Below, piece by piece: positions 34,871-55,031 of a stretch of DNA of 64,000 nucleotides; within the stretch, counting starts at the first letter, position 1; each line of letters starts with the position of its first letter. Location of the stretch: sequence record NC_047754.1. The stretch is one strand, 5' to 3'. The notes beneath the pieces were generated by a model. The model was not told where the DNA came from and made no database searches. It saw only the letters and a program-made list of their open reading frames with translations. The translations under genes and the position numbers were made by a program. The DNA is from Escherichia phage phiAPCEc03.

Positions 34871-34900
34871 ATTATACTAGATTTCGAGAGAATTTAGCAA
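34871..34900 (-). promoter_or_regulatory. sigma70 promoter (-35 TTGCTA, 18 nt, -10 TATAAT)
   Basis: Minus strand TTGCTA-aattctctcgaaatctag-TATAAT-ATATACATAAATTCGAGGAG. Confidence 0.55.
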
Positions 34901-34971
34901 CTAAAAGTTTTATTTTTCTGCTTCGGACTTTCTTATCAACCCGAAACTTTCTCTCTCAAATTTATGTATAT

Positions 34972-35000
34972 ATTATACATCATTTATGAGCTGTTGCCAA
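34972..35000 (-). promoter_or_regulatory. sigma70 promoter (-35 TTGGCA, 17 nt, -10 TATAAT), tandem with previous
   Basis: Minus strand TTGGCA-acagctcataaatgatg-TATAAT-ATATACATAAATTTGAGAG; -35 lies in 3' end of helicase gene. Confidence 0.5.
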
Positions 35001-36336
35001 ATGCAATTTTAGCTAATTGAACTGCTTTCTCCGGAGTCATAGTAATAGTTTTCCACCCGTTGTTACGATATACTGTCATACGTCCAGAAGCCTGTCTTAG
35101 CCCAGTGCCACCTTTCATAATTAGATCTACAACGATTGGGTCGAGTTTACCCTCGACAATACGTTGAACACGGCCTGCAAGCTGTTCAATTAGAGATTCA
35201 TTATTAATGAGGCTTCCCATTATTAAACAAGACAGCTCGTTAAGTGAAATACCTTCAGAGAAGATGCTTTGAGCTGCTGCAAGCACACACGGCCCGCCTT
35301 TTGCTATATCTTCCTGAATTTTTAATCGGTCATCTAAGTGGGTTGCTCCTATAATTTCATAGGTTGTAACACCACGCTGTGTAAGAGCTTCTAGTATTGT
35401 TTGTATTAACTCTGTTCTATCACTTACAATGAGTACTTTATGTCCCATATTCGCATATAAATGTGCTAGGTTTATAATAGTCTCTCGGTATTCAGGATGG
35501 TTATACACATCGTTAGCACGTAATGCCCACGGTACGTTTTGGTTTCCTGATAGCTCAACAGGCACGGAATACCTATGTATTGTAGGAGCAACAGTATTAT
35601 TAACCGGCGGGCTAAATATCTTATATCCAAAGAAATCTTTGAACATAAATTGTAAACCATCTTTTCGTTTTAATGTACCGGATAGTCCAATTTTATAGCG
35701 AGCACATGATATTTCTAGGAAATTAGTGAAAGTTGTAGCTACACAATGGTGAACTTCATCAACTATAACAGTACCGAATACTTTAGAAAGATTATTCGCA
35801 TGTTTATTCACTGTTTGAATATTACTGACTACAATTGGTGGATCAATATTGTATTTCCCAGAACCTATAATGCCCGGTTCAAACCCAAACCATTTACGAA
35901 CTTCTGCCGCCCACATTTCACGAATGGATGTATTCGTACAGATTACCAAAGTTTTCTGGCCAAATTTATATGCAAGTGCAAGGGCTAGGATAGTTTTACC
36001 AAACCCAGGCTTACCATTAATAATACAGGTATCATCGCACTCTTCATATATTGGAAGCTGATCTTCTTCACGCAGTTTAAACGACGGTTTTGGTATATCT
36101 ACCGGAGCTAATGTGCGTTTATCAACTAATTCGTATTTTATTCCTTTAGCATCTAGTAAGTCCAGACGCGTAATAGGAATCCACTTAATCTCTTTGGCAA
36201 CAACACCACTATTCTTATACATAATAGGGTATTTACTAGTCATTGTCTCTATGTGATAAGTGGTTTGCTTACTACAATAGTCCCAAAGTTCATCATCGGG
36301 CTTGAAATAGGCTTTATTAGATATAACAACCTTCAT
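34984..36336 (-). CDS. SF2 DEAH-type DNA helicase (T5 D10-like)
   Basis: 450 aa; Walker A GKPGFGKT, Walker B VIVDEVHH. Confidence 0.8.
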   Translation of the reverse strand: MKVVISNKAYFKPDDELWDYCSKQTTYHIETMTSKYPIMYKNSGVVAKEIKWIPITRLDLLDAKGIKYELVDKRTLAPVDIPKPSFKLREEDQLPIYEECDDTCIINGKPGFGKTILALALAYKFGQKTLVICTNTSIREMWAAEVRKWFGFEPGIIGSGKYNIDPPIVVSNIQTVNKHANNLSKVFGTVIVDEVHHCVATTFTNFLEISCARYKIGLSGTLKRKDGLQFMFKDFFGYKIFSPPVNNTVAPTIHRYSVPVELSGNQNVPWALRANDVYNHPEYRETIINLAHLYANMGHKVLIVSDRTELIQTILEALTQRGVTTYEIIGATHLDDRLKIQEDIAKGGPCVLAAAQSIFSEGISLNELSCLIMGSLINNESLIEQLAGRVQRIVEGKLDPIVVDLIMKGGTGLRQASGRMTVYRNNGWKTITMTPEKAVQLAKIAFGNSS

Positions 36337-36830
36337 AATTTTATTCTAAGTCTAGGAATTTCAGGCTCCTCTTGATGGACTTGATAAATAACAGGGCTAT
36401 TATTTACCAGAATATAGCTTATATAAGCTGGAACGTAGGATAATACAAATGGATAAGGGACTTTAGCCACATAGCATTGGTATTTTCCATTATAAATTCT
36501 AGCTGAATGCAAAACTTTAGAGGTGACAACATCATAGAACGTAGTTTTCTTCCAATTAATAAGATTTCCATCAGAATCTATAAATTGGTTACGCTTTGAC
36601 CCAACTAATTGAGACAACATTGATATTCTACCCCTAATAGGATAGAGCTTGTATGGTAATTCTTTCCGTTTCTCAAATAGAATAAGCCTACGTTGAGAAA
36701 ACGTGCCAGGCAACTTCCTGTTATCTAGCACATATTTATTATATCTTGTTGTAATTACGGAATAATCACCTTCTTGCTCAATTGATACAAACGCCCGTAA
36801 TGCATAGACGGGCAATTTGAAATTAAGCAC
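36333..36830 (-). CDS. hypothetical protein
   Basis: 165 aa ORF between DNA polymerase and helicase genes, overlapping both by a few nt. Confidence 0.45.
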   Translation of the reverse strand: MLNFKLPVYALRAFVSIEQEGDYSVITTRYNKYVLDNRKLPGTFSQRRLILFEKRKELPYKLYPIRGRISMLSQLVGSKRNQFIDSDGNLINWKKTTFYDVVTSKVLHSARIYNGKYQCYVAKVPYPFVLSYVPAYISYILVNNSPVIYQVHQEEPEIPRLRIKL

Positions 36831-39390
36831 CGAGAATCCTTTTCACGTTATCCAGATCTTTACATACAGCAATAAACTTATCATCCTTGTACTTGCTGTG
36901 GTCTGGATGCTCTTTATCCATTGCTGCTAATTTCTTATACTCGAAATCTGCATCAAGTAATACACCCTTGACATAACGAGTATATTCATCATCATCAATA
37001 CAAGCGATTGATGGGTGCTGTTTCTTCATCTTACCACAAGAATAGTCACGAGAACCTCCAGCTTCAGAATCTGAATCAATACCAATCGGACAGCCAGGAA
37101 TACTGATACCACGGTCTTTCTGAATATTACGAATCAGGATTTCATTGTATTGGTCGATCAAATCCTCACGAACAATAGCAACTACGGAATCGTGAACCAG
37201 CATAACAATCTTCATCTCTTGTTCTAGGCCAAGAGAAATGATCTCATTATCTGCATCTACAGCACCTAAAAGGAGACTATCAGAAGAAGCAGACTGAATG
37301 ATTGCATTAAATCCAGAACGAATTTCTTCACCCTGAACGCCACGGTCTTCGGAATGGATATTATGCAGACGACGTTTACGACCAAAGTGACTATAGATAA
37401 ATCCATGATTCTTGATCTGATCGTGGCACTTATCAATCCAACGCTTAAGCTGTGGGAACTGACTGAAGTAAGTTTCGATATAGTCCTTCGCATCTGCAAC
37501 AGTACATTCAACAAACGGTTCGCCTGTTTTAGCAGATTGTTCCAGAAGAGCTTCGTTAACAGAATGCGCTACTTTAGCCGGGCCAGAGCCGTATAGAATA
37601 CCGAAGGTAATTGCCTTAGCGGCCTGACGCAGCGCTGGGAATAGCTTTTTAACATCACGGGGTTCGCATTGCAGCTTAAACACCATGTGTGCGATGTTAG
37701 AGTGGAAGTCAGGGTATTTATCAGGTTCATTTCTCATGTTGATAAATACTTGTTGCATATTTCTATCACCAGATAGAACAGCAGCATAATAAACTTCCGC
37801 AGTTGTTAAGTCCCATGCGATTACACGGTATCCCGGCGGTGCAACTACACAACCCTTAATGATAGATTCATCACGAGGTAACTGTTGCAGGTTCAGTTTA
37901 CCAGAAGAACTCAGACGACCAGAAGTAGTCATATGTTCGTGGAAACCTGTACGAATGCAACCATCTGCATCAATACTCAGAAGAATCTTCTCAACATAAG
38001 TAGAGATCAGCTTAGTCAGCTTACGAATCTCTAGAAGAGTTTTAGCAATCGGATGTTGGGTTGCCAACTCATTCAGAGCTTCTGCATCCGTAGAATCTGC
38101 ACCAGTATCTGTTAATTTACCAGTTGGAGTCAAACCAACATAATCGAACAGAAGAACACGAAGTTGCTTAACAGAGTTCGGGTTAAATGCTTCATTCTGA
38201 TCTTGTTCTAGCTGTTTAACTTCTGGATAAGTATACAGTTTCTCACGGGCTTTATTCAGGTTATGAGTTAACTGATACTGAGCTTCTTTCAAACGATCAA
38301 TAGAGATAGGTACTCCACGATCCTCAACACGTTGCAAGAATACGCAACCAGGCATCAAAACATCATAGTACAGACTGCAAAGTTTTTCATTCTTCTCAAT
38401 TTTTGGTAAGAAGAAGTTGTGCAAACGTATGGTGGCATCTGTATCTTTCGCAGCATATGGCCACATAATATCAAACGGAATTAAATCATAGGTGAAATCT
38501 TCTTTCTTGATTTTATGTGCTTTGCAGTAATCATCTTTGAACTTATCTAGTTCGAAGTCATAGTCACCCATATCGGTATACTTCATTGCTAGAGATTTCA
38601 AGCCATGAGTACCACGACGTTCATCTAGAACATAGTGCTGCAACATGGTATCATGGAGCCTGCGTTCTTTATGTGCTTTATCAAAAGTAAGTCCCAGATG
38701 GTACTTATAAAAGTGCATATCAAACTTCAAGTTGTGAAAAACAATAGTGTGGTTTTCACTATCCAGAATTTTCTGGAGATAATATACTGCAACTTCTGTG
38801 AGACAATCAGAATCGATATATACACCCTGATATTCTTGGTGAGATATAGAAACACCAAGCAGATAACCATCTCTACAGTATAGTGCTGAGGTTTCGGAGT
38901 CGAATGCGACAGGTCCGATAACCATATTATACACCATCTTGATATATTCTTCTGCCTCATCAGGGTCAGTAATAGGACGGTAATCACCAGCTTTTGCAAT
39001 CTTCTCACGACCATTGATAATATCGTGGATATTCTCTACTGTTGCATCAAAAACTGGTTTCATCTCAGGTTTAAAGTGTAACTGGGCTGGGCTGATACTC
39101 GCAATCCAGTTAGCATATCCATTATACTCTACACGTTTACCGGTATAATCACCAATACCTTTCTTACCTGCAAAGTACAGAAAAGGTTCGGCACCTACCA
39201 GTATAACAAAATCATAATCATTCGGGTCAAATGGGTTTTCCGGAGTCCCGATAGTAATATGCTTTTTGAGCAAACGACCGGATAACTTCTCGTTACACAT
39301 ATGGAATACATCAACTTCCTCGCCGTATAGCTGGAAATGTTTATCATAACGAGTGTTATTTAGGGCTTTATCAACTACTGCGATTTTCAA
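36823..39390 (-). CDS. DNA polymerase, family A with 3'-5' exonuclease domain
   Basis: 855 aa (same as T5 DNA polymerase); exonuclease motif AFDSETS; polymerase motifs incl. KAITFGILYGSG and LVHDS. Confidence 0.9.
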   Translation of the reverse strand: MKIAVVDKALNNTRYDKHFQLYGEEVDVFHMCNEKLSGRLLKKHITIGTPENPFDPNDYDFVILVGAEPFLYFAGKKGIGDYTGKRVEYNGYANWIASISPAQLHFKPEMKPVFDATVENIHDIINGREKIAKAGDYRPITDPDEAEEYIKMVYNMVIGPVAFDSETSALYCRDGYLLGVSISHQEYQGVYIDSDCLTEVAVYYLQKILDSENHTIVFHNLKFDMHFYKYHLGLTFDKAHKERRLHDTMLQHYVLDERRGTHGLKSLAMKYTDMGDYDFELDKFKDDYCKAHKIKKEDFTYDLIPFDIMWPYAAKDTDATIRLHNFFLPKIEKNEKLCSLYYDVLMPGCVFLQRVEDRGVPISIDRLKEAQYQLTHNLNKAREKLYTYPEVKQLEQDQNEAFNPNSVKQLRVLLFDYVGLTPTGKLTDTGADSTDAEALNELATQHPIAKTLLEIRKLTKLISTYVEKILLSIDADGCIRTGFHEHMTTSGRLSSSGKLNLQQLPRDESIIKGCVVAPPGYRVIAWDLTTAEVYYAAVLSGDRNMQQVFINMRNEPDKYPDFHSNIAHMVFKLQCEPRDVKKLFPALRQAAKAITFGILYGSGPAKVAHSVNEALLEQSAKTGEPFVECTVADAKDYIETYFSQFPQLKRWIDKCHDQIKNHGFIYSHFGRKRRLHNIHSEDRGVQGEEIRSGFNAIIQSASSDSLLLGAVDADNEIISLGLEQEMKIVMLVHDSVVAIVREDLIDQYNEILIRNIQKDRGISIPGCPIGIDSDSEAGGSRDYSCGKMKKQHPSIACIDDDEYTRYVKGVLLDADFEYKKLAAMDKEHPDHSKYKDDKFIAVCKDLDNVKRILGA

Positions 39391-39451
39391 ATTTAATCTC
39401 CTCTTGGTAAGTAAGTATAACTTCAGTGTTTCTTCTCTAACTTACCAATAT

Positions 39452-39481
39452 ATTATACCAAATCTTTAAGCGATTCAGCAA
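39452..39481 (-). promoter_or_regulatory. sigma70 promoter for DNA polymerase gene (-35 TTGCTG, 18 nt, -10 TATAAT)
   Basis: -10 overlaps primase stop codon; conserved downstream ATATATTGG... Confidence 0.5.
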
Positions 39482-40343
39482 CTAAAATTTCAATACGTTT
39501 TGCTAACATATCAATCTCTTCTTTATTTAAGTCACCAGGGTCTTTACCTTCAGGCAGAAGAAAGTTAGCAACTACAGGTGTTAAACGCGTTTTTGTACGA
39601 ATTAGCTTGGCCAATGCTTGTGCAGCTTTATTACCAGAAGCATCATTATCTAGTAAGATAACAACAACTTTTACACCGGCAATAATATAAGGACTGAACT
39701 TATCTGCAATGTTATCTGAAGTAAACTGATGTGTACCAAAGCAGCAGGAAGCATAGTCTATACCATTATCCTCTAGATTCAGCATATCAAAGATACCTTC
39801 AACTAGAATAAGAACTGGAGTATTATATCGTACAGGAAAAATTGGTGGTGAAACTTGTTTTGGTTTTACTAAGTATTTAGGAGGGGCAGAACTGTTTATA
39901 GAACGACCCAAAAATAGGATATTGCGTCCAACAGCATCTGTGATTGGGAATACAATTCTGCCTTCCCAGTCTGCTTGGTGTTGGAAAGCAAAATATTTCT
40001 TCAAGGTCTTAGAACTTATGCCTCGGAAATCACCTTCGAAAAGGTAAGCAGATTCAGGAATTGCAAGATTCGTTGATCCATTCCTAATCTCTGAAATCTT
40101 TTTACGTACTTGCGATAGCCTTGGGGACTGTCGGTACTGAGTCTCATTAAAATAATGGTAAATGCTCGGTATACCTTTACCGAATCCACAACTCAAGCAG
40201 TGCATAATACCTGTTTCAGGGTCAATACGCAAACTTGGGTGTTTATCGTCATGATCTGGATTGAGACAACATATAAGAATATCCCCGCCTGTATCCTTGT
40301 ACTCAATTCCTTTTAGATCAAGTAACTCTGTTATTCTACTCAT
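39453..40343 (-). CDS. DNA primase (DnaG-like: zinc finger plus TOPRIM)
   Basis: 296 aa; CHC2-type zinc finger CCLNPDHDDKHPSLRIDPETGIMHCLSCG; TOPRIM-like LVEGIFD...ILLDNDASG. Confidence 0.8.
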   Translation of the reverse strand: MSRITELLDLKGIEYKDTGGDILICCLNPDHDDKHPSLRIDPETGIMHCLSCGFGKGIPSIYHYFNETQYRQSPRLSQVRKKISEIRNGSTNLAIPESAYLFEGDFRGISSKTLKKYFAFQHQADWEGRIVFPITDAVGRNILFLGRSINSSAPPKYLVKPKQVSPPIFPVRYNTPVLILVEGIFDMLNLEDNGIDYASCCFGTHQFTSDNIADKFSPYIIAGVKVVVILLDNDASGNKAAQALAKLIRTKTRLTPVVANFLLPEGKDPGDLNKEEIDMLAKRIEILVAESLKDLV

Positions 40344-40873
40344 GAATTTAACTCCTCCAGTGAAGGATAATTAGATGTATCAAAAATTTCTATAACAGCA
40401 CGTTCTCCATGTAACTTAGTCCTTAATATATTTGCTGAATTTACAGCTAGCTCTAGCTCTTCATACTTAAATCTGCCACCATTTTTAAGAGTGCTATTAG
40501 AGTCTCTTACTTGAACTCTCCATCTTTGTTTTTCTATATCCCAAGCAACTCCCAAATATCCAGACTTACTACATGCGGTTTTATTTCTACTATTTTCCTG
40601 GGCTGTGGCGTCTCTTAGATTACACCATCGGTTATCAAAGGGTATTCTATTTACATGGTCTACTTTTTCAGGTAACGTGTTTTCCATAAATAGGAAGGCC
40701 ATACGATGGGCTTTATAATCACTACCATCTATACCGATAATTATATAACCGTTTGAATCCTTTCTAGTTACTATACTCCCGGCTTTCTGGTTGCCTCTAG
40801 ATACTTTTCTAATAAACTCCCCAGTCTCTGGGGAGTAGTCAAACAGTTCTTTTAGTCGTTCCTGTGTTATCAT
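40340..40873 (-). CDS. HNH-AP2 homing endonuclease
   Basis: 177 aa; HNH core VDHVNRIPFDNRWCNLRDATAQEN, AP2-like YLGVAWDIEKQRWRVQV; N-terminus MITQERLKELFDYSPETGEF nearly identical in pattern to the 60851 ORF. Confidence 0.75.
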   Translation of the reverse strand: MITQERLKELFDYSPETGEFIRKVSRGNQKAGSIVTRKDSNGYIIIGIDGSDYKAHRMAFLFMENTLPEKVDHVNRIPFDNRWCNLRDATAQENSRNKTACSKSGYLGVAWDIEKQRWRVQVRDSNSTLKNGGRFKYEELELAVNSANILRTKLHGERAVIEIFDTSNYPSLEELNS

Positions 40874-42393: not shown

Positions 42394-42424
42394 AGCCCCC
42401 TCCCCTTAGGTTTAATTTACCAGA
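42394..42424 (-). terminator. intrinsic terminator
   Basis: Minus-strand hairpin AAGGGGAGGG-ggctatgct-CCTTCCCCTT followed by TTTGCATTT. Confidence 0.55.
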
Positions 42425-43192
42425 TTATTCAGCAGCCGCAGCTTTTGCATCCAGTTTAGCACGCTTAGCGGCACCATCATAGTCCTTAGCAACCAGACCA
42501 CGACGAGACAGCATAGATTTAACACCGCGCTCAGATTTACCAGTTTTCTCAGCGATCTCAGCAACAGTCATGTTAACCAGATCCAGACCTTCTAACAGAT
42601 CTTCACGAGTTTTAGCACTTGAGGTTTCCTGTACCGGCATAGCAGCGATACGACCTTCACGAAGCAGGCTCAGAGCTTTACCACGGATCTGCTTAATATT
42701 GCGACCGAAGTGAGCAGCGATAGCTTCAATAGTAGCACCAGCAACAACCTGATTAACAAAATCAGTTTCTTCATCCGGAGTGAAGGAACGAACAGCAGCA
42801 GCTTTTTCGGTTGGCTTAACAGAAGCGGTCATTTCCAGACTCAGGATCTTACCCTGTACCTGTTTAGCACCGAACTGACCACCAGCTACAGCAGCAGCGA
42901 TTTCAGCATAGGTATACTGACCAGCATGAGCGTTCAGGAAATCAACCAGTTCAGCTTCCTGCTCAGGAGTCCATGGGGATTTCTGTACTTCGTTGGCTTT
43001 CTGTACTTCAAAACCTTCTTTACGCAGTTTAGAACCAACAGAGCGGGCAGTAACATCTTTGCCAGTTTCAGCAGCCAGTTCAGCAGCGATAGCAGCTACT
43101 TGTTCTTGAGAGATTACAGAAACACCCAGAGCAGTGGCTTTTGCTTTCAGAGACTCGGTTACACCTTCTACGTTCCAGTTCAGTTTAGACAT
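42425..43192 (-). CDS. abundant DNA-binding protein with three HTH-like repeats (possibly T5 D5-like)
   Basis: 255 aa; three similar segments (YTYAEIAAAVAGGQFGAKQVQGKILSL / ATIEAIAAHFGRNIKQIRGKALSL / MTVAEIAEKTGKSERGVKSMLSRRGL); high-expression codon usage; Ala-rich. Confidence 0.45.
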   Translation of the reverse strand: MSKLNWNVEGVTESLKAKATALGVSVISQEQVAAIAAELAAETGKDVTARSVGSKLRKEGFEVQKANEVQKSPWTPEQEAELVDFLNAHAGQYTYAEIAAAVAGGQFGAKQVQGKILSLEMTASVKPTEKAAAVRSFTPDEETDFVNQVVAGATIEAIAAHFGRNIKQIRGKALSLLREGRIAAMPVQETSSAKTREDLLEGLDLVNMTVAEIAEKTGKSERGVKSMLSRRGLVAKDYDGAAKRAKLDAKAAAAE

Positions 43193-43958
43193 TATTATTT
43201 TTCTCCAATAGTTCTTTAATCGACAGGATTTCTATCCCATTCGTTTCGGCTTTCTTATAAGATGAGGAAGAACGTTTTGATTCATCCTCACAGATCAGGT
43301 ATTTGACATCTTTGGTAACGGATTTCTTAACCGTATATCCTAGACCTTCTAAATAGTTTGTTGCATCCGTTCTATTTGCAAAGTCTTGCAAAGATCCGGT
43401 AATACATACCGCGATTCCATTTGGCTGGGCAACTAAATCATCAGTAACGACGGTTTTAGCTTTAGCACCAGTTGAGAATTTCCACGGTAATTCGATAACA
43501 TCCTTGCCTTGTGGGGAATTTAGCCAGGCTTTATAGTTTTCTCCAGCCTTGCCGTCAGCCTTCACATCGTGGAAGCTAGTGCAATTTTGGGATAATTTCT
43601 TTGCTGCAACCTCTCCGATTAGAGGGATTCCTAAAGAACCGAGAACTGAACCAAAGTCAATGTCTCCGCGAACTTTAGTATTTAATTCGCTAATTAACTT
43701 AGCGGCAACCTTGCTACCCACGGCTCTAACCAAATCTTCTTCGGTTAGGTAAAATAGTTCTGAAATCTTCGTCAGCTCCAGCTTCTCAATAGTTTTTGGA
43801 CCAAAGCCCTTTAACTTAATTTTTGTACAGAAGTTCTCAATTAACTTACTTGATTGCGCTGGACAGTTGGACTTATTCCGACAGAATAATTGTCCGTTGA
43901 CAAGATCTAGCTTAGAACCACAAGAGGGACATTGTGTTGGAATTTCGATTTTCATCAA
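43185..43958 (-). CDS. ligB: NAD-dependent DNA ligase, C-terminal subunit (Zn finger, HhH, BRCT-like)
   Basis: 257 aa; CPSCGSKLDLVNGQLFCRNKSNC zinc finger near N-terminus, helix-hairpin-helix-like segments; separate ORF from adenylation domain. Confidence 0.7.
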   Translation of the reverse strand: MMKIEIPTQCPSCGSKLDLVNGQLFCRNKSNCPAQSSKLIENFCTKIKLKGFGPKTIEKLELTKISELFYLTEEDLVRAVGSKVAAKLISELNTKVRGDIDFGSVLGSLGIPLIGEVAAKKLSQNCTSFHDVKADGKAGENYKAWLNSPQGKDVIELPWKFSTGAKAKTVVTDDLVAQPNGIAVCITGSLQDFANRTDATNYLEGLGYTVKKSVTKDVKYLICEDESKRSSSSYKKAETNGIEILSIKELLEKNNNV

Positions 43959-43985
43959 AGTTCTTCCTTATCAATTTATATAAAT

Positions 43986-44014
43986 ATTATAGCAAGTATT
44001 TAAGCATTTAGCAA
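43986..44014 (-). promoter_or_regulatory. sigma70 promoter between the ligase halves (-35 TTGCTA, 17 nt, -10 TATAAT)
   Basis: Minus strand TTGCTA-aatgcttaaatacttgc-TATAAT-ATTTATATAAATTGAT. Confidence 0.6.
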
Positions 44015-44157
44015 CTACAATTTTAACTAACTTTGCTTACCCTCGCCATAACTTTCTATCCCTCAACTGAATGATAATAGTATATACCTAAGCGGCGAAA
44101 ATGTCAATAACCACTTTATAATTCCGATATGGTAGATGGGTAGCAAAGGGTTATGTA

Positions 44158-45129
44158 TTAATCGTATACTCGCTCTACTATACACGGGATTACACCACCA
44201 GCACGAATTACTCGAATCTGGCAACCGATCTCTAGATCAAGAGAGTTAATATAATCAACGTTATTAAGAGTCGCCTTAACAATTGTAGCATCATCAATAA
44301 TTACCGGTTCGAAATAACCAACTGGAGTTACTTTACCAGAGGCCCCTACCTGCCATTCAACTTTAGTAAGAGTTGTAATCTCGCCTTCTTCATCCTCTTT
44401 AATAGCGAAGGCTCCACGAGGGAATTTATTAGTCCAGCCCTCTCGGAAGAATTTGTTGTTATCATTAATACGAACAACTTTACCGTCCGTCGGAATCCAT
44501 TTAAAGAAGGAACGCACATTAACAACTGTTAAGAAGTTCTCATTCTCTAGCCAAAGCATATCTTTTAAATATGCTTCTGTAATACCTACAGATTCAGCAG
44601 AACACTGGATACCGTATGCGACGAAGATTAAACCACCTTCCCCTATACGTTGTACGAAATCATCGCTATCTTTGAGGTTAATAGCACCAGAGGCAAAGTT
44701 ACGTTTATTTTCTACTTCTTTTGTAATTAGAACTTCACCAGTGATTTGAGTAGGTACTTTTTGGGAAATCTTTTGAGGGATGTTCAGCAATCTTACGTTG
44801 CTTGTGACATCATTCCCTAGAATACCATTACCACGAGTTAGTGCTTGAACAAATTCGCCATTAATATATAACAGAGAAATCGCACAACCATCTAACTTAT
44901 CAGTTTCTACCTGACCTAACGGGTTGAACGGAGGTTTATCTCCACGATTATAATAAACTTTCTGTAAAGAATACATACGATACAGATGTGGAATATCACC
45001 CTTAGGCCCGATCTCTTCTTCTAATGGAAATCTTTTAATCAGACGATCATATTCTTCGTCAGAGATTAAAGACATACCTTGATAATATGCTTCTTGACAG
45101 CGTTTAATAAAGTCTTTTACATTAGTCAT
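44158..45129 (-). CDS. ligA: NAD-dependent DNA ligase, N-terminal adenylation subunit
   Basis: 323 aa; adenylation motif KLDGCAISLLY (KxDG) and OB-fold region; stops 199 nt before the Zn-finger subunit. Confidence 0.75.
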   Translation of the reverse strand: MTNVKDFIKRCQEAYYQGMSLISDEEYDRLIKRFPLEEEIGPKGDIPHLYRMYSLQKVYYNRGDKPPFNPLGQVETDKLDGCAISLLYINGEFVQALTRGNGILGNDVTSNVRLLNIPQKISQKVPTQITGEVLITKEVENKRNFASGAINLKDSDDFVQRIGEGGLIFVAYGIQCSAESVGITEAYLKDMLWLENENFLTVVNVRSFFKWIPTDGKVVRINDNNKFFREGWTNKFPRGAFAIKEDEEGEITTLTKVEWQVGASGKVTPVGYFEPVIIDDATIVKATLNNVDYINSLDLEIGCQIRVIRAGGVIPCIVERVYD

Positions 45130-45160
45130 TTATTTATATCTCTCATCAATTTATATAAAT

Positions 45161-45189
45161 ATTATATAATAAAACTGAGTTGAAAGCAA
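45161..45189 (-). promoter_or_regulatory. sigma70 promoter for ligA (-35 TTGCTT, 17 nt, -10 TATAAT)
   Basis: Minus strand TTGCTT-tcaactcagttttatta-TATAAT-ATTTATATAAATTGATGAGAG. Confidence 0.6.
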
Positions 45190-45202
45190 ATACATTTATA
45201 AA

Positions 45203-45525: not shown

Positions 45526-45575
45526 TTACATATTCCAAATACACAAAAAGCCCCATATAGGGGCTAATTGGTTTC

Positions 45576-45872
45576 TTATCGGCCTACTGGAGAAGCACGA
45601 TCTAACTCTGATTGGAGGCTAGTCACACGACGGACTTTCTCGACAGGAATAAAACGGAAGCTATCATTAGTACGAGAGAAGACAAGGATCTCATCATCTT
45701 TCGCTTTACGAATACGTTCACGTTTAATACGCTCAGCTAGATATTTATCTTGGGCTGGATCAAATTCCATTGTACCCTGAAGGTACGTGGTTCCTTTCTG
45801 ACGAAGTTTCTCGTAATGAAGATAAAACTCACCAAATTTTTCACATTGTGCGATAATTTCAGCTTTGGTCAT
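45576..45872 (-). CDS. hypothetical protein
   Basis: 98 aa ORF; followed by hairpin AGCCCC-tatat-GGGGCT-TTTT. Confidence 0.45.
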   Translation of the reverse strand: MTKAEIIAQCEKFGEFYLHYEKLRQKGTTYLQGTMEFDPAQDKYLAERIKRERIRKAKDDEILVFSRTNDSFRFIPVEKVRRVTSLQSELDRASPVGR

Positions 45873-45908
45873 AACTGTGTTCCTTTTGTTGGTGGATTTA
45901 TCTAAAAA

Positions 45909-46319: not shown

Positions 46320-46376
46320 ATTTTATATTTCCTTAATTAAGAATTAAACAGAATAGTTCTTTCAAACTATGAGAAT

Positions 46377-46405
46377 ATTATATCAAGAATTATAAGATTA
46401 AGCAA
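46377..46405 (-). promoter_or_regulatory. sigma70 promoter (-35 TTGCTT, 17 nt, -10 TATAAT)
   Basis: Minus strand TTGCTT-aatcttataattcttga-TATAAT-ATTCTCATAG. Confidence 0.6.
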
Positions 46406-46425
46406 CTGAAATTTTTCTGTAATTG

Positions 46426-46713
46426 CTACACATCTAGCTCAACGATCTCCCAATCATCCGCCAGAGCTTCTTCTAGGGTTAGGGAGGTGGTTTTCCATGT
46501 TGCGTCTTTTATATCGAACTTGGTATACCCATCTTCATTGGGCCACCAGGTAAACTCGACAATATCATTATTATCAACATCTACTTTTATAATAGTAGAG
46601 TAATAAGTACGAGCATCCCAGTTACCCCAGCTATCTCGCTGGAGATATTTTACATCTCCATCTTTGAGCAAATCTGTTAGTTTACTCACGGCGTTTTCCT
46701 TTTTCTTTATCAA
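46426..46713 (-). CDS. hypothetical protein
   Basis: 95 aa acidic ORF. Confidence 0.4.
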   Translation of the reverse strand: MIKKKENAVSKLTDLLKDGDVKYLQRDSWGNWDARTYYSTIIKVDVDNNDIVEFTWWPNEDGYTKFDIKDATWKTTSLTLEEALADDWEIVELDV

Positions 46714-47386
46714 GTTTCAGGGCAGCCTTAACAGCTTCGTTAATCAACGTAATAATTTCTTCACGAGTCCATTTATACCCCAGAGACTTTACGTCTACCC
46801 CTAACTTTTCCAGATGTTTAACAGAAGCCAGCTCGTAATTCATATAATGAACGTTCTGTTGTTTGCCTTCTGATAGAAGCCATACACGGTAGCAACCAAC
46901 AGGATTATCCATTGCTTTTTTGATTTCACCGATACACTGGTATCCAGGAACCCAAACAAGCTCACCAACTGCAAATTCTTCTGCTACAGCATCATCAGGA
47001 ATAATCGGAGGATTCAATGGATCTACAATATCATTCAAACGAAGTAGAGCACCGTAGCGTTCCAGAACAGATTTAACCATTGCTACAGAGCGATAATTAC
47101 GATCGGCAATTTCTTCAAAAGAATCACCAGATAAATACTGCTCAATAACGTTGGCTAACTCGATGCCTTCAATAAGTGTGCCACGTTTCTTTTTCTTCAT
47201 TTCGGCAACTTGAATCTGGCGGTCTTGCCATTCTTCAATCATCCTTTCCATAGTTGGGTTGGATGATACGCCGAGCATTTCACATGCTGCTTTCTTAGTA
47301 CCACCGTTCTCCAGATGCTCTATAACTTTTTTAAAGACTTCATCCGGGATTTCATGGATATGTTTCTTTCTGCGAGAACCAGCCAT
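46682..47386 (-). CDS. putative HTH DNA-binding regulator
   Basis: 234 aa; N-terminal helix-turn-helix-like segment TKKAACEMLGVSSNPTMERMIEEW; basic termini. Confidence 0.45.
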   Translation of the reverse strand: MAGSRRKKHIHEIPDEVFKKVIEHLENGGTKKAACEMLGVSSNPTMERMIEEWQDRQIQVAEMKKKKRGTLIEGIELANVIEQYLSGDSFEEIADRNYRSVAMVKSVLERYGALLRLNDIVDPLNPPIIPDDAVAEEFAVGELVWVPGYQCIGEIKKAMDNPVGCYRVWLLSEGKQQNVHYMNYELASVKHLEKLGVDVKSLGYKWTREEIITLINEAVKAALKLDKEKGKRRE

Positions 47387-47417
47387 ATTTAAACTCCTCT
47401 CTCAAATTTATGAATCT

Positions 47418-47446
47418 ATTATACAGAAAAATTTTCCTGAAAGCAA
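47418..47446 (-). promoter_or_regulatory. sigma70 promoter (-35 TTGCTT, 17 nt, -10 TATAAT)
   Basis: Minus strand TTGCTT-tcaggaaaatttttctg-TATAAT-AGATTCATAAATTTGAGAGAGGAG then ATG at 47386. Confidence 0.6.
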
Positions 47447-47454
47447 ATAAATTT

Positions 47455-47796
47455 TTACGATTCCTTGAGCAAAGAAGAAAGTTCAGCATATACTTTATCT
47501 AACTCAAACCCTATGCGAAGAGATACGTTAGTCCTCCGTTGTTTAAGTAACCACTCGGATATGTTAGGGATGCCAGCTAATCTATGTGGTACCACCCTAC
47601 ATAGCTTTTCCGAAGTATCATAAACAGGAACTTTACGTTCTTTTACTGGAAACTTCCTTGTTTCCCATTTTTTATTCTTCACTGTCATATCTCTCCGAGG
47701 GATTAAATTCACCAAACAGCTCTTTAACTCCCCTAAGGTATAGCTGATGGGCTTCTTCCGGGGTATCTCGTCTACCAAAAATATGTTGCTTTCCAT
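47455..47796 (-). CDS. hypothetical protein (true start possibly internal Met near 47690)
   Basis: 113 aa ORF overlapping 3' end of upstream HNH gene by 125 nt; basic. Confidence 0.3.
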   Translation of the reverse strand: MESNIFLVDEIPRKKPISYTLGELKSCLVNLIPRRDMTVKNKKWETRKFPVKERKVPVYDTSEKLCRVVPHRLAGIPNISEWLLKQRRTNVSLRIGFELDKVYAELSSLLKES

Positions 47797-48202
47797 CGCA
47801 GTAAGCGTAGGCCATATACCTATTACCTCGTTTTACAACTCCAGTGAATCCGGTAGAATTAGTAGAACACTTCTTATTCTTTCCATTTTCGGAATAGGTA
47901 GCCTTACGTAAATTATCCCACAAGTTGTTTAAACTATCACCGTCTTTATGGTCAATAGTTTTATCTCCAGGATCTTCACCTGTCTTTATAAACCAGATTA
48001 TTCTATGGGCTAAGTAAGCTGTCCGCTCCCCATTTATCATAAACTCTAGCTGTCTCCCAGTTTTCATTTTGGAGCCCGCTACTTTTCCCTTCCTTGGGCC
48101 AGATAACCAAATTAAGTCCCCAGTACTTTCGTCATATCTAAGCTTTTCTAGGATAAATGCCATAGGAGGCATTGGTTTATGCATCTTCATTAGTTGCTCC
48201 AA
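47672..48202 (-). CDS. HNH-AP2 homing endonuclease
   Basis: 176 aa; HNH core IDHKDGDSLNNLWDNLRKATYSENGKN, AP2-like TGFTGVVKRGNRYMAYAYCDGKQHIFGRRDTPEEAHQLY. Confidence 0.75.
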   Translation of the reverse strand: MEQLMKMHKPMPPMAFILEKLRYDESTGDLIWLSGPRKGKVAGSKMKTGRQLEFMINGERTAYLAHRIIWFIKTGEDPGDKTIDHKDGDSLNNLWDNLRKATYSENGKNKKCSTNSTGFTGVVKRGNRYMAYAYCDGKQHIFGRRDTPEEAHQLYLRGVKELFGEFNPSERYDSEE

Positions 48203-50963: not shown

Positions 50964-51462
50964 AACAATACTCCTGTGTTGGAAATGAAATAAGTTTTCT
51001 TTAGGACTATTCAGAAAGAATAGAACAACTGTTACTGTCAATTTCTCAACAAATTAATTGCAAATACTGAAGTGGGGTGGCAACTTCCACTTTCACGCTG
51101 CGCTGCTGCTTTGCTATACCGCACAAATCCTTGAGGATGGCCGCTAAGCCAGATTTGCTCACCTAATGCTTCATATACTAGCTCATACTAGATGCAATAT
51201 AACTTACAGAATCACGTCTCGGAGTTTTTCACTCCTCCCGTCTCACTTCACAACCACCTCTGTCTAGGTTGCTTCGAGGCCTTACCAGGGTTCCTACGGG
51301 ACGCAGATCGCTAAGTATTCTATTAACTATTTGTTTAAAAACTAACACGTAACAGTTAAAACAACCCTTAATGGGGCAGCCTAACTGTTCCGTATCGCGG
51401 ATTGTAAACAAGAAAAATTAGCAAAATCAATTTTTACTAATGTCTCTCAATTCAATATAAAT

Positions 51463-51491
51463 ATTATATCAAGATTTTGGGCATCCTGCAA
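51463..51491 (-). promoter_or_regulatory. sigma70 promoter (-35 TTGCAG, 17 nt, -10 TATAAT) firing into a ~500 nt leader
   Basis: Minus strand TTGCAG-gatgcccaaaatcttga-TATAAT-ATTTATATTGAATTGAG. Confidence 0.5.
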
Positions 51492-51582
51492 GTAAAATTT
51501 TCCGGATGGTGCTATCATTGGTCTTGAGTACGGATAAAACCGAGCCAAAATGACTCGGTAATCAGAGTTCAGCTAATAAAAA

Positions 51583-51975
51583 TCATTCATCATTTAGGCC
51601 TGGAACATAAATCCCAACACGATTTAATTGTTCTTTAGCTTCTGCGAGAATATCTGGAGTGTACTCCCAAATATCATCTTCCACCTGTAAAAGATGGGGC
51701 GAACAACCATCATCCGGCACACGACATATGGCCAAACCACGTGGATGGAATATAGAGAAGTTTAGGGCAACAATTAAACCCATAGCGGATAATTCATTCC
51801 AGTCCAATTCCCATTCCCCCGCGTAGCCGGATAGGAAAACACCAACACAGGGATCATCTATTTGCTGCTCCGGAAAAGTGAAGGAGGCTTGTCTTACCCC
51901 CAACCAACGTTGTAGCAGCTTCTCCGCACGTTTCACCAAACTAGGATCAATCTGACGCCAATATACTTGTTCCAT
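51583..51975 (-). CDS. hypothetical protein, tandem paralog B
   Basis: 130 aa; aligns with neighbour at 51985 (PCVGVFL..W.EL..MGLIVALNF..F.P......YVPGL versus PCIGLIV..WKELDEMGLVFALNYKLFMP....YMIPGL). Confidence 0.5.
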   Translation of the reverse strand: MEQVYWRQIDPSLVKRAEKLLQRWLGVRQASFTFPEQQIDDPCVGVFLSGYAGEWELDWNELSAMGLIVALNFSIFHPRGLAICRVPDDGCSPHLLQVEDDIWEYTPDILAEAKEQLNRVGIYVPGLNDE

Positions 51976-51984
51976 TATGCCCTC

Positions 51985-52413
51985 TTAAGCAGTTAAACCT
52001 GGGATCATATACCCGAAACGTCGAAGTTTCTGAATCCCCTCATCTACTTCTTCCGGTGAGTAAGACCAACCATAACGTTCATTAACCTGAAAACCAGGAG
52101 ATTCACTAGTTTTATAGTTAACAACGAGGCGATGCTTAGCAGGCATAAACAGCTTATAGTTTAACGCAAAAACTAAGCCCATTTCATCTAACTCTTTCCA
52201 GCCGACAATCTCTTCAAGACCCTCCTCTACCTGAACAATTAAACCAATACAGGGGGCCTCATCAATATCATCTTTAAAAGCAAAGGAGATTTCGTTATTC
52301 TCACACCATATTTTCAAAGAGTTAATAGCCTCATTATACAGGCTAGCTGGGAGAGTACGCCAAAAGTTAACCAAAATTGGGTTAGCTTCTTTAGAGAATA
52401 CATTATTGAACAT
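51985..52413 (-). CDS. hypothetical protein, tandem paralog A
   Basis: 142 aa; see paralog B. Confidence 0.5.
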   Translation of the reverse strand: MFNNVFSKEANPILVNFWRTLPASLYNEAINSLKIWCENNEISFAFKDDIDEAPCIGLIVQVEEGLEEIVGWKELDEMGLVFALNYKLFMPAKHRLVVNYKTSESPGFQVNERYGWSYSPEEVDEGIQKLRRFGYMIPGLTA

Positions 52414-52415
52414 AT

Positions 52416-52955
52416 TTACACCTTAAATTGTTGCAAGGATTTACACATTTCAAGATCTGGGCTAAATTCTAGCATATAGCTAACAGCTTTTAAATCTTGA
52501 AGATTTATCCCAGTCCTACCGTTGACTATAACCGTTGGATACTGATACATCATAGCACCCGCATCATCAAGCACACACCAATGTTTGAGCTTATGCTTTT
52601 CAACGAAGCGAAGAACAGAATTACCCCTAGATAATCCACCACCAGTAAAATCCGTTGTACCAAGAAAACGATCGATAAGACCTAATCCGGTCATAATCTG
52701 AACGTTCTCCATCTCATTTCTGACAGAAAACCAAGATGATACTCCGACAATCATTATCGGAGAAGGACGAATAAAGTCCTGAAAAGCCTTGAGAAGCGGT
52801 TTGAAAACCCAGTCACTTCCAAAGAAAATCTTTTCATCATCAGGTGCATGATGGTGGGAGATGCTCGAATTGAGCACCCCATCAATGTCTAGAAAAATAA
52901 TTGGAGTATTACTTATTTCCACCAGTAGCATCCCACGTCCAGACTTTAACTTCAT
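52416..52955 (-). CDS. HAD-superfamily phosphatase-like protein
   Basis: 179 aa; motif I FLDIDGVL near N-terminus; downstream VLDDAG-type acidic motif. Confidence 0.6.
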   Translation of the reverse strand: MKLKSGRGMLLVEISNTPIIFLDIDGVLNSSISHHHAPDDEKIFFGSDWVFKPLLKAFQDFIRPSPIMIVGVSSWFSVRNEMENVQIMTGLGLIDRFLGTTDFTGGGLSRGNSVLRFVEKHKLKHWCVLDDAGAMMYQYPTVIVNGRTGINLQDLKAVSYMLEFSPDLEMCKSLQQFKV

Positions 52956-53094
52956 CAGTAAAAGGAACCGGAACCTTCAATTCACCCTTACCCCACATAA
53001 CAGACAGGAACAGAGAATAAATGGTAATCATACCAATTAGGTTGACAAACCATACTAGACCTTTCCAGATACCCTTAAAAATCTTCTTTATCAT
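52909..53094 (-). CDS. small membrane protein
   Basis: 61 aa; hydrophobic helix LVWFVNLIGMITIYSLFLSVMW; start overlaps stop of upstream small ORF (ATGA). Confidence 0.4.
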   Translation of the reverse strand: MIKKIFKGIWKGLVWFVNLIGMITIYSLFLSVMWGKGELKVPVPFTDEVKVWTWDATGGNK

Positions 53095-53261
53095 TCGTTC
53101 TCCTCTAGGAACGTATCATACTCAACCGTATCAACATATATGACACCATAGTCATCGGATTTATAGTCCATTTCCCACAGCTCACAGCGATAGCACCAAC
53201 TACCATCCGCCCATACAAATATATCATCGGGATGTGTATACACAGATTTAACTATGGACAT
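53091..53261 (-). CDS. small hypothetical protein (56 aa), paralog of 53252..53437
   Basis: Hand translation MSIVKSVYTHPDDIFVWADGSWCYRCELWEMDYKSDDYGVIYVDTVEYDTFLEENE; shares D-IF-x-GSWCYR motif with neighbour; below ORF-track cutoff. Confidence 0.35.
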   Translation of the reverse strand: MSIVKSVYTHPDDIFVWADGSWCYRCELWEMDYKSDDYGVIYVDTVEYDTFLEENE

Positions 53262-53437
53262 ATCTGTTTCCCCTCATCTCCAGAGGATAACCATATGTTC
53301 TCTGTAGTATAGATAATTTTATATGTGTTGCCCAACCTTTCTTTAACATTAGGAAATCTATAGGCAAACCTATAACACCACGTGCCAGACTCAGTTATAA
53401 AAATATCCCATTCATTATTTCTTGCTTCCCGACACAT
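53252..53437 (-). CDS. small hypothetical protein
   Basis: 61 aa; EWDIFITESGTWCYRF motif shared with 53091..53261. Confidence 0.35.
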   Translation of the reverse strand: MCREARNNEWDIFITESGTWCYRFAYRFPNVKERLGNTYKIIYTTENIWLSSGDEGKQICP

Positions 53438-54233
53438 AAGGTCTACCCTCTAAATGAGCTTCTACACGAGCAATAAAATCAGGATCACTGAAAGCATCTA
53501 CCGCACCTTTACTCCAGTAAGGGATACCGCGTTCTTCCAGCTGGTACATCTCACTACGAGTCATACCTTGATAGCCCGGTTCCGCCGCTAGGGCACTATC
53601 ATAGTAGTTAACAACCATTAGCTTGGCAGCAGTCAAATTAAGAACAGGAAATAATTCCCAGTAGAAGTTAATTACTTGGTTAGAGCAACCAATCACAACG
53701 ATCATATCTTGACTGGTAATACCATCAAAAACATTGTACATTTCTGCGTATGCAGGAGCATGCTCTCCAAAGAAGATTACATTAGGTTTAACCCATTTAT
53801 AATCATCTGGATCAATAGAATTATATCCTACATCAATAATCCGTTTATTACTACTACTGTAGCTATCCGCTACAACAACCTCTTTTAAGTATCCATGAAT
53901 GTGCAGAATGTCACTATGTGGAACTCCAGCACGCTCAATAAGGTCATCAACGTTGGTAGTCAAGTTTACTATTTGACCGGGATATTGTTTATACCATTCG
54001 CCAATACGCAAATGCGCAAGATTGGGTTCAACAGTTTTTAGCTCTTCACGACGCTTGTTGTAAAACATATGGGTTTTATGATAAAAATTACCACGAAAGG
54101 CATGAATATTACATACTTCTTCTAGATCATAATCATCCCACAGTGCTTTACCACTAGCAGTATCAGTACGGAAGGCTCGTACACCACTTTCAACACTCAA
54201 ACCTGCACCGCTAATAATAATTAATCTACGCAT
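53415..54233 (-). CDS. Sir2-family (sirtuin-like) NAD-dependent protein, zinc-ribbon-less
   Basis: 272 aa; sirtuin signature motifs GAGLSVESGVRAFR (cf. GAGISxxSGIPxFR), TTNVDDL (cf. TQNID), HIHG catalytic His, NVIFFGE, VIGCS; no CxxC...CxxC zinc module between HG and FFGE. Confidence 0.7.
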   Translation of the reverse strand: MRRLIIISGAGLSVESGVRAFRTDTASGKALWDDYDLEEVCNIHAFRGNFYHKTHMFYNKRREELKTVEPNLAHLRIGEWYKQYPGQIVNLTTNVDDLIERAGVPHSDILHIHGYLKEVVVADSYSSSNKRIIDVGYNSIDPDDYKWVKPNVIFFGEHAPAYAEMYNVFDGITSQDMIVVIGCSNQVINFYWELFPVLNLTAAKLMVVNYYDSALAAEPGYQGMTRSEMYQLEERGIPYWSKGAVDAFSDPDFIARVEAHLEGRPYVSGSKK

Positions 54234-54447
54234 TTTTCACCTGTTCTCTGAAGTTTTGCCCAATACTGCCTAATAGCTCAGCTAATTCTTTATTGCCTTT
54301 CTCCATTAAGGTATTAGCAATAACTTCTAGCATAGTAGCGCAGGATTCAACACCATCCTTATAGCCAGTTTCCCAGTGCTGCATTAATGCATTTTCCAAA
54401 GCGGCGTTTAACCCCTTATCTGGTAGCATCGGCTTCGAGAATGCCAT
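54226..54447 (-). CDS. hypothetical protein
   Basis: 73 aa ORF. Confidence 0.35.
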   Translation of the reverse strand: MAFSKPMLPDKGLNAALENALMQHWETGYKDGVESCATMLEVIANTLMEKGNKELAELLGSIGQNFREQVKNA

Positions 54448-54619
54448 ACAGTTTCTCCTCTAGTTCCATAACACGATTTTCATAAGAGGCACGCAACTTT
54501 TCAATTGCCAGCGCACGCACTGTAACCTCATTAGAATTAATAGCTAATTGGGCCAGATCTTCTGTTTCCATACGTCCGTTGTAAATTAAGCGATATTTAA
54601 GATGTTTTACGTTTTTCAT
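54416..54619 (-). CDS. hypothetical protein
   Basis: 67 aa ORF. Confidence 0.35.
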   Translation of the reverse strand: MKNVKHLKYRLIYNGRMETEDLAQLAINSNEVTVRALAIEKLRASYENRVMELEEKLYGILEADATR

Positions 54620-54990
54620 ACTTTTAGCTCCGCTCCAATATCCTCATAGAAGTAATCGTAGTAAACCTGCTTAATATGATGTTTAATAACAGAAGAGAAA
54701 TCCTCTGTGCCGTTAGAGGTAACATTAAATACTTGTAAGTGGTTCCAATATACAAATTCTAGAGTCTCTTTTAAGTCTTCAGGTTCTTCATATATAGGAT
54801 TATAGACAGTAATATCTAATTCTTGCTCTACGAAGTCACCTAGTAATGTAGGATATCCAATACCTCCTAGCAATGAGTAATCACCTGTAGCAGCAAAAAT
54901 AGCTTCCTGAATAGTATCTACTCCTAAGTGATAATGTCCTAACTTAGATACAACAATAAATGGTTTTAGGTCCATATACCCTCCTCTCAA
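54616..54990 (-). CDS. hypothetical protein
   Basis: 124 aa acidic ORF with SD GAGAGGAGGG and upstream promoter. Confidence 0.45.
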   Translation of the reverse strand: MRGGYMDLKPFIVVSKLGHYHLGVDTIQEAIFAATGDYSLLGGIGYPTLLGDFVEQELDITVYNPIYEEPEDLKETLEFVYWNHLQVFNVTSNGTEDFSSVIKHHIKQVYYDYFYEDIGAELKV

Positions 54991-55002
54991 ATTTATAAAT
55001 CA

Positions 55003-55031
55003 ATTATACATAAGTTTTAGCTCGAAAGCAA
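55003..55031 (-). promoter_or_regulatory. sigma70 promoter (-35 TTGCTT, 17 nt, -10 TATAAT)
   Basis: Minus strand TTGCTT-tcgagctaaaacttatg-TATAAT-TGATTTATAAATTTGAGAGGAGGG then ATG at 54990. Confidence 0.6.

Follow-up and report, generated by a model that had tools for sequence, protein, structure and literature searches.

The 64,000 nucleotides of Escherichia phage phiAPCEc03 analysed here (sequence record NC_047754.1; hereafter the window) carry a promoter cassette which is repeated many times and in which sigma70-type hexamers are followed by a conserved block extending into the beginning of the transcript. Judged by its sequence, this cassette corresponds to the well-known strong promoters of the early genes of phage T5, among them P_N25, which serves as a standard model of promoter escape and on which the commercial "T5 promoter" used in expression vectors is based. 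In our opinion the sites are very probably sigma70-dependent early promoters of the T5 type, whose downstream block consists of a discriminator followed by an initial transcribed sequence (ITS) which promotes escape. A first-pass annotation of the window had already described these sites as early promoters and had noticed that their conservation exceeds what sigma70 requires. Both statements hold: the sites are orthologous to promoters which are annotated as early, or named outright, in T5 records, and the alignment of the copies, a test with a position weight matrix (PWM) and the variability of orthologs all reveal a discriminator and an initial transcribed region which are shared in addition to the hexamers.

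Many T5-like phages (genus Tequintavirus) share about 96% identity with the window. We blasted 13 promoters annotated in T5 to the window, and 12 of them map to the expected positions with 92.6-100% identity: the four named promoters P-N25, P-N26, P-K28a and P-K28b (see Table 1 for the matching segments) and the promoters of ligA, D2, pol, T5p098, T5p123, nrdD, phoH and the nrdB/HNH unit. The thirteenth, the Sir2 "putative promoter" of T5, has a match of only 31 nt in the window. In the homologous stretch, the GenBank record AY692264 names "promoter P-N 25", "P-N 26", "P-K 28b" and "P-K 28a" together with nine "putative promoters", while the record AY587007 uses the labels "putative early promoter T5P28...T5P38" and T5P41, and marks "repeat c" or "repeat b" over the -10 hexamer and the leader. 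In T5, "repeat c" has the sequence TGTATAAT-AGATTC-ATAAATTTGAGAGAG and "repeat b" the sequence TATAAT-ATTTAT-ATAAATTGATAAG, and this is exactly the downstream element that the first-pass annotation had picked out. This means that the cassette and its repetition are already catalogued in the GenBank records of T5; the observation is real but it is not new. The window sites are therefore orthologs of the T5 early promoters (P_N25, P_N26, P_K28a, P_K28b and others; Gentz & Bujard 1985; AY692264, AY587007), found in the same gene context (D3, ligA/ligB, D2, pol, nrdD, phoH, nrdB) and endowed with the same UP-like A/T block, TTGCTT -35 hexamer, TATAAT and downstream homology. The promoters of the two phages do not differ substantially; the llp/receptor-binding region is not homologous, the gene which follows the 5269 promoter is a different one, and some spacers are a few bases off.

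The pattern TTGCT(T/A)-N17/18-TATAAT has 10 matches in the window where 0.18 would be expected, and the count stayed below 10 in all of 100 shuffles. Seven exact matches lie on the minus strand (1560, 34871, 43986, 45161, 46377, 47418 and 55003) and three on the plus strand (57199, 60796 and 63929), so that the original description of a minus-strand module was too narrow. All eight minus-strand promoters listed in that description are present, and seven fit the pattern exactly, the eighth (34972) being TTGGCA-N17-TATAAT. Its estimate of at least eight copies is borne out, as more exist, including 39452, 51463, 56983 and the P-K28b site at 44079-44107. The variant -35 hexamers TTGCAG, TTGCTG, TTGGCA and TTGACA surfaced in a relaxed scan and in the output of a repeat finder, which recovered the cassette independently as repeat families D2, D4, D7, D13 and D14. 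A scan with the generic sigma70 consensus was uninformative in this AT-rich window (67 sites for 57.5 expected).

The downstream element had been described as a conserved 15-mer followed by AGGAG in front of the ATG, which is true of part of the sites. The literal 15-mer ATAYATAAATTYGAG occurs with at most one mismatch at four of the eight (at 34854, 34955, 47401 and 54986, belonging to promoters 34871, 34972, 47418 and 55003 respectively) and with three mismatches at 1543 (promoter 1560); the variant ATTTATATAAATTGAT is found at 43986 and 45161, a weaker one, ATTCTCATAGTTTGAA, at 46377, and AGGAG stands immediately 5' of the ATG at some sites only. As a loose pattern with three mismatches, the 15-mer is not enriched in the whole window (20 occurrences for 14.8 expected). 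The signal of the downstream block is seen only once it is anchored to the -10 hexamer, and not by loose matching of the 15-mer.

We therefore aligned 14 sites on their -10 hexamer, with +1 placed as in P_N25. In the P_N25 ortholog +1 is assigned to the A at 47411, because TATAATAGATTCAT is the sequence from -12 to +2 of the T5 N25 non-template strand (PMC7472727); in the other copies the start would be the equivalent A or G located 7 nt downstream of TATAAT. The alignment, transcribed part included, displays peaks of information at -45..-37 (AAAATTTTA), at the -35 hexamer, at -6..-1 (ATaTt.) and at +1..+13 (ATAAaTT.GAGAG). The best-conserved transcribed positions are +2, +4 and +7, and T+7 is essentially invariant. 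We then scored the 19 nt following every TATAAT of the window (n = 99, with 14 promoter candidates) with a leave-one-out PWM. Thirteen of the 14 candidates score between +2.7 and +19.5 bits, whereas the other TATAAT hexamers have a mean of -13 bits (standard deviation 6.2). The candidate which fails is site 57058, and the best TATAAT outside the list of candidates, 56983 (4.9 bits), is itself a consensus promoter, that of nrdD. At the late promoter T5P39 (18260 in the window) the block scores -3.4 bits.

The composition of the ITS is peculiar as well. Over the 14 sites its purine fraction is 0.70, compared to 0.53 in sense-strand controls, its A+T content is 0.82 over +1..+10, and C occurs 0.86 times per 20 nt instead of 3.5; none of 20,000 bootstrap samples reaches the observed values.

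The block is also held in place across relatives. We measured variability as the fraction of distinct orthologs which differ from the window, averaged over nine promoters and about 28 related loci. This fraction is 0.000 for the -10 hexamer, 0.028 for the -35 hexamer, 0.030 for +1..+7, 0.039 for +8..+13, 0.052 for the UP-like block and 0.053 for the discriminator, but it amounts to 0.134 in the spacer, 0.153 far upstream and 0.12-0.17 over +14..+60. In other words, the variability of the downstream block is close to that of the -35 hexamer, whereas the spacer and the flanks vary 3-5 times more; the constraint reaches approximately +16 and then relaxes. Judging from this variability among orthologs, purifying selection acts on -6..+16 in T5-like phages with the same strength as on the -35 hexamer. 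The TG at -15/-14 is constrained too, which indicates an extended -10.

A scan with the D3 protein gave 45 loci, with identities from 100% down to about 30%, from which the range of the cassette can be read. Close relatives have P_N25 orthologs with changes in the spacer (TTGCTTTCAGGAAAATTTTTCTG versus TTGCATAGTGCAAAAAATTTCTG) and sometimes with a different upstream gene, while TATAATAGATTCATAAATTTGAGAGAGGAG hardly changes, except that some orthologs have an additional GA or lack a base. The full cassette is also present in relatives whose D3 is 67-73% identical. At the distant D3 loci (at most 41% identity) no promoter was found directly 5' of D3, and the distant clades have TTGAC(A/T) promoters in which only "AT" is kept after the -10. 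As these distant clades lack it, the full block is characteristic of Tequintavirus and of phages closely related to this genus. Among the paralogous copies within the window, identity is 0.78 at the -35 hexamer and 0.69 at +1..+7, whereas the 17-nt spacer (0.38) and the sequence beyond +14 (0.31) are at background level. Copy identity is thus confined to the functional blocks, which argues against a recent duplication of the whole cassette.

These features would fit together in the following way. The early promoters would be read by the unmodified host RNA polymerase and are made of five parts: an UP-like A/T block AAAATTTTA at about -45 to -37, a TTGC(T/A)N -35 hexamer, usually the TG of an extended -10, a perfect TATAAT, and the downstream block, that is to say an AT-rich discriminator of 6 nt (ATATT-like) and the ITS A(+1)TAAATT.GAGAG. 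The upstream parts would bind the polymerase very fast and very tightly, at the price of making escape the limiting step. The conserved ITS would compensate for this by keeping the initial complex out of backtracked, abortive states, and the resulting fast escape would give the high output needed for the early genes of the phage.

For P_N25 itself this picture has experimental grounds. According to PMC12464699, which reports the work of Kammerer (1986), replacing +3..+20 of N25 ("antiDSR") cuts full-length RNA to one-tenth and expands abortive synthesis, escape being impaired. According to the N25 literature, this 10-fold effect was measured as RNA yield in vitro and needs no phage protein; N25 has the highest on-rate and an open-complex half-life of 180 min among strong promoters and is rate-limited at escape; and a purine-rich non-template ITS avoids the pretranslocated state, which is prone to backtracking. 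The segment ATAAATTTGAGAGAGGAGTT at 47411-47392 is the N25 ITS itself, as studied under the name of downstream sequence region (DSR) by Kammerer et al. (1986) and with the N25/N25anti pair by the Hsu laboratory. The published experiments concern N25 only; the other copies in the window share the purine-rich, C-poor and AT-rich character of its DSR. It may thus be expected, by analogy, that the whole early set shares the N25 design and that the other ITSs act like that of N25. As to activity in vivo, primer extension detected 11 of the 19 T5 promoters of Gentz and Bujard as well as Ppol, which was in this way validated as an early promoter (PMC7472727).

Several facts weigh against this reading. 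The escape function has been demonstrated for P_N25 only, the +1 and the role of the ITS at the other promoters being assigned by alignment. The block is weak at P-N26, at 60796 and at nrdD, and site 57058 (TTGCCA-N17-TATAAT) does without it. At the promoters with short leaders, +9..+17 doubles as a Shine-Dalgarno sequence, so that the constraint is partly translational there. Finally, the block is specific to a class of promoters, early and not late; an escape function by itself would not call for this, and a regulatory role could be accommodated.

The first-pass annotation had indeed considered a binding site for a phage regulator. We regard it as possible, though on balance not probable, that the block, and especially its ATATT-type discriminator, is a class mark for phage factors which turn the early promoters down at the early-to-late switch: either gpT5.026, which binds RNA polymerase and weakens its contacts with -5/+2, or a protein bound to the DNA over +1, for which the D5-like regulator is a candidate. 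Such a role is compatible with an escape function and would be added to it rather than replace it. Early promoters have the block and the late promoter 18260/T5P39 lacks it; likewise, the known T5 early promoters all carry an ATATT discriminator, and early and late promoters differ mainly there (PMC7472727). gpT5.026 binds the beta subunit of RNA polymerase and lowers its binding to an N25 -12/+2 oligonucleotide 8-fold, and a gene 026 mutant has about 5-fold more early transcript and 5-fold less late transcript (PMC7472727). D5 is, according to PMC12630848, which cites McCorquodale 1979, a DNA-binding protein which affects late gene expression, and its homolog is encoded inside the module. On the other side, our literature search returned no D5 binding data for these sites. 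The dyad symmetry of the block is marginal (4.99 versus 4.57 +/- 0.18 for shuffles, p of about 0.02) and comes from the AAATTT core only. The block is never found apart from a -10 hexamer and stands at a fixed distance from it, with no sign of an autonomous operator; an early-type block also precedes an open reading frame (ORF) of the late region, 5295..5732; and the downstream effect of N25 is 10-fold with no phage protein added.

The discriminator part of this proposal is that of Klimuk et al. 2020 (PMC7472727), in which a protein bound to RNA polymerase, and not a DNA-binding repressor, acts there. The window consensus at -6..-1, ATaTt., is the element boxed in their Figure S5, and its specificity for early versus late promoters is reproduced in the window. 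However, the N25-type copies have AGATTC and not ATATT, and the proposal of these authors is limited to the discriminator and does not extend to +1..+13. Gene 026 is not part of this window.

A bolder form of the idea, which we find rather doubtful, makes the block an address label of the early class: the ATATT-type discriminator together with the -10-like TAAATT at +2..+7 would let gpT5.026, the D5-like protein with its putative helix-turn-helix (HTH), or both, stall or exclude the polymerase at all early promoters at once. If true, this would give the T5 early-to-late switch, whose mechanism is described as still unknown (PMC7472727), a defined cis-element. A class-specific block is a reasonable candidate for such an element, and the idea is already in print. 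The DNA-binding protein that the first-pass annotation had suggested as the binder, encoded at 42425..43192, does turn out to be a D5-like regulator. Its product also matches Pfam Sigma70_r4_2 (9.6e-7, 28.8 bits for a curated cutoff of 25.7, residues 204-230), and there are weak HTH and Myb matches. An HTH resembling sigma region 4, in a protein genetically tied to the early/late switch, might be of structural interest.

It could also be argued that the transcribed block is conserved mainly as a translation leader, made of an A/U-rich enhancer and the Shine-Dalgarno sequence GAGAGGAG. The case for this comes from seven promoters (llp, K28a, ligA, N25, 55003, nrdD and 60796) at which the whole leader is 6-25 nt long and +9..+17 is the ribosome-binding site right before the start codon. 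However, promoters with the start codon at a distance of 45 to more than 400 nt have the block just as much (34871, 34972, pol, N26, D2 and phoH), and hence it cannot be only a ribosome-binding site. Moreover the discriminator, which is not transcribed, is constrained all the same, the best-conserved positions +2, +4 and +7 are not those of the Shine-Dalgarno sequence, and the antiDSR effect concerns RNA yield in vitro. We consequently hold this explanation to be unlikely. Secondary structure of the leader RNA was discarded: shuffled sequences fold as well as the pol, phoH and N26 leaders (z = -0.18, +0.35 and -0.35), and the N25 hairpin is worth only -1.8 kcal/mol.

Very unlikely, in our opinion, is a signal for pausing. 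T(+2)AAAT T(+7) resembles a -10 element (TAnnnT), and rebinding of sigma70 region 2 to it would cause a pause near +17/+18, as at lambda PR' or lacUV5. TAnnnT occurs at +2..+7 in 10 of 13 sites (T+2, A+3, T+7), which is a resemblance only; T+2 and T+7 belong to the positions with the highest conservation and the lowest variability, and the constraint among orthologs, as said above, extends to about +16. Yet a 4/6 match to TATAAT weighs little in a sequence with 82% A+T, our literature search returned no report of a sigma-dependent pause at native N25 (PMC4005639 uses the N25anti ITS only), and the description of N25 as the fastest-escaping variant is at odds with a built-in pause.

It is scarcely credible that the similarity reflects shared ancestry only, that is, recent duplication or gene conversion, for instance along with insertions of homing endonucleases, with a functionless downstream part: homing endonuclease genes do adjoin several promoters (T5p093, T5p107, the insertion in phage SE7) and the copies do form the sub-families "repeat b" and "repeat c", but copy identity is at background in the spacer and beyond +14, the copies combine upstream and downstream sub-types in different ways, the block is under purifying selection among orthologs, and an endonuclease between 34972 and 34871 as the cause of their duplication was ruled out, since the endonuclease of SE7 is found 5' of the two tandem copies and not between them.

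The reading of the block as a shared discriminator or initial transcribed region is correct but dates back to the mid-1980s. These are among the most studied bacterial promoters and their repeats are already in the T5 GenBank records, so that the discovery value of the cassette itself is small. What we add is the escape-type composition of the ITS, common to the whole early set, the selection on -6..+16, as strong as on the -35 hexamer, and the conservation across genera of the tandem copy at 34972. The ITS property shared by the early set and the purifying selection on it appear to be unstated in the literature consulted, and they are an incremental advance. Among other systems, T7 A1 and lambda PL/PR, the comparators of Brunner & Bujard 1987, are likewise host-sigma70 promoters serving a rapid takeover, and the ITS of T7 A1 also eases escape. 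However, their sequences are not homologous to the T5 cassette, and no common ITS has been reported for lambda or T7 promoters, whereas T5 repeats one cassette design more than 12 times.

The individual promoters are listed in Table 1. The copy at 34972 has the highest leave-one-out block score (19.5 bits). It has no gene of its own and reads into the 34871 promoter, and the only T5 annotation for it is "repeat c copy 7". Salmonella phage SE7 (Epseptimavirus) has the same tandem pair with the spacing of 101 nt preserved, and no ORF covers it there. This spacing and this location support 34972 as a real promoter.

Table 1. Early promoters of the window, their T5 counterparts and the D5-like candidate binder (window coordinates; the block is given as discriminator then transcribed part)
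Feature	Position	Strand	-35	-10	Block	Remarks
P-N25 ortholog, 5' of D3 (46682..47386)	47399..47456	-	TTGCTT 47441-47446	47418-47423	AGATTC ATAAATTTGAGAGAGGAGTT	ATG 47386; 100% over 95 nt (47456-47362) to AY692264 "promoter P-N 25"
P-N26 ortholog	46358..46415	-	TTGCTT 46400-46405	46377-46382	ATTCTC ATAGTTTGAAAGA	weak variant, 6.5 bits; leader 51 nt; 97.9% to AY692264 (46416-46321)
P-K28a ortholog, 5' of ligB (43185..43958)	43967..44024	-	TTGCTA 44009-44014	43986-43991	ATTTAT ATAAATTGATAAG	"repeat b"; 99% (44034-43930); "repeat b copy 5" in AY587007
P-K28b ortholog	44060..44117	-	TTGACA 44102-44107	TATACT 44079-44084	ATTATC ATTCAGTTGAGGG	looser block; 100% over 105 nt (44127-44023); top match of generic promoter scan
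Early promoter 5' of ligA (44158..45129)	45142..45199	-	TTGCTT 45184-45189	45161-45166	ATTTAT ATAAATTGATGAG	"repeat b"; 15.1 bits; 96.9% to T5P35/putative promoter
Early promoter 5' of T5p098 homolog	54984..55041	-	TTGCTT 55026-55031	55003-55008	TGATTT ATAAATTTGAGAGGAGG	"repeat c"; homolog of T5P31/"repeat c copy 5"
Early promoter 5' of D2, origin-binding helicase (ends 51041)	51444..51501	-	TTGCAG 51486-51491	51463-51468	ATTTAT ATTGAATTGAGAG	leader >400 nt; 100% to T5P32; repeat family D4
Early promoter of DNA polymerase (36823..39390)	39433..39491	-	TTGCTG 39476-39481	39452-39457	ATATTG GTAAGTTAGAGAA	18-nt spacer; 55-nt leader; 100% to T5 putative promoter
Early promoter 5' of T5p123 homolog (34479..34763)	34852..34910	-	TTGCTA 34895-34900	34871-34876	ATATAC ATAAATTCGAGGAG	18-nt spacer; leader ~100 nt; 99% to T5P38
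Tandem upstream copy	34953..35010	-	TTGGCA 34995-35000	34972-34977	ATATAC ATAAATTTGAGAGAG	overlaps last codons of D10 helicase ORF
Early promoter 5' of llp-position ORF (1262..1528)	1541..1598	-	TTGCTT 1583-1588	1560-1565	AGATTC ATAAATTAGAAAT	same position as T5P41 (llp early promoter in T5)
nrdD promoter (nrdD 55074..56948)	56959..57016	-	TTGACA 57001-57006	TATAAT 56978-56983	AGTAGT CTTAGTTAGAGAAGGAG	perfect hexamers, N17 spacer; 4.9 bits; 92.6% to T5 "putative promoter"
phoH early promoter	57189..57246	+	TTGCTT 57199-57204	57222-57227	ATATTT GTAAGTTGATAAA	58-nt leader; 100% to T5P30
HNH endonuclease/nrdB unit early promoter	60786..60843	+	TTGCTA 60796-60801	60819-60824	ATCTCC ATTAGTTAAGGAG	97.9% to T5P28
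Early-type promoter at window edge	63919..63977	+	TTGCTT 63929-63934	63952-63957	ATATTTT ATAAATTGGAGG	block displaced 1 nt; 10.6 bits when shifted one base
D5-like transcriptional regulator, candidate binder	42425..43192	-				phrog_323 "transcriptional regulator, D5-like", E = 1.4e-71; annotated T5p116 "putative transcription factor"

At the nrdD promoter both hexamers are perfect, an arrangement which also exists in T5, although Gentz and Bujard reportedly never found the two consensus hexamers together in their selected strong T5 promoters. Divergent from this promoter and 141 nt upstream of that of phoH, the plus-strand site at 57058-57086 consists of TTGCCA-N17-TATAAT followed by the GC-rich discriminator CACGCAC; it has no early block (score -25) and is absent from the annotations of both T5 records. 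In the llp/receptor-binding region, positions 1-2000 of the window have no homology by blastn-short to 110.4-110.7 kb of T5 and show the same cassette architecture, which suggests that the receptor module may have been swapped while the promoter design was kept.

In the late region, TTTACA-N17-TATACT and the early-type block ATATTC ATACAGTTGAGGAG (5241-5295, plus strand) precede the ORF 5295..5732, which lies between the terminase (3864..5180) and the portal (5732..6949) genes and is called "nicking endonuclease" in some relatives. This promoter is shared with T5 up to about +2, where an inserted gene begins in T5. Another cassette, CCTTTTTTATTGGGAAAAATAAA, made of a terminator tail and an A-rich block, is repeated on the plus strand at 9496-9531, 14501-14536 and 18231-18266, where T5 has its late promoters T5P40 and T5P39. 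At 18260 the late promoter is TTGATA-N17-TATAAT with a different discriminator, AATTGT, and its leader AAGAGGAGAAATTAACTATGAGA presumably resembles the "RBSII" of pQE vectors. Lastly, in-frame arrays of 21-nt and 75-nt repeats (repeat families D1, D3 and D6) are found at 24413-25236 on the plus strand, inside the L-shaped tail fibre gene.

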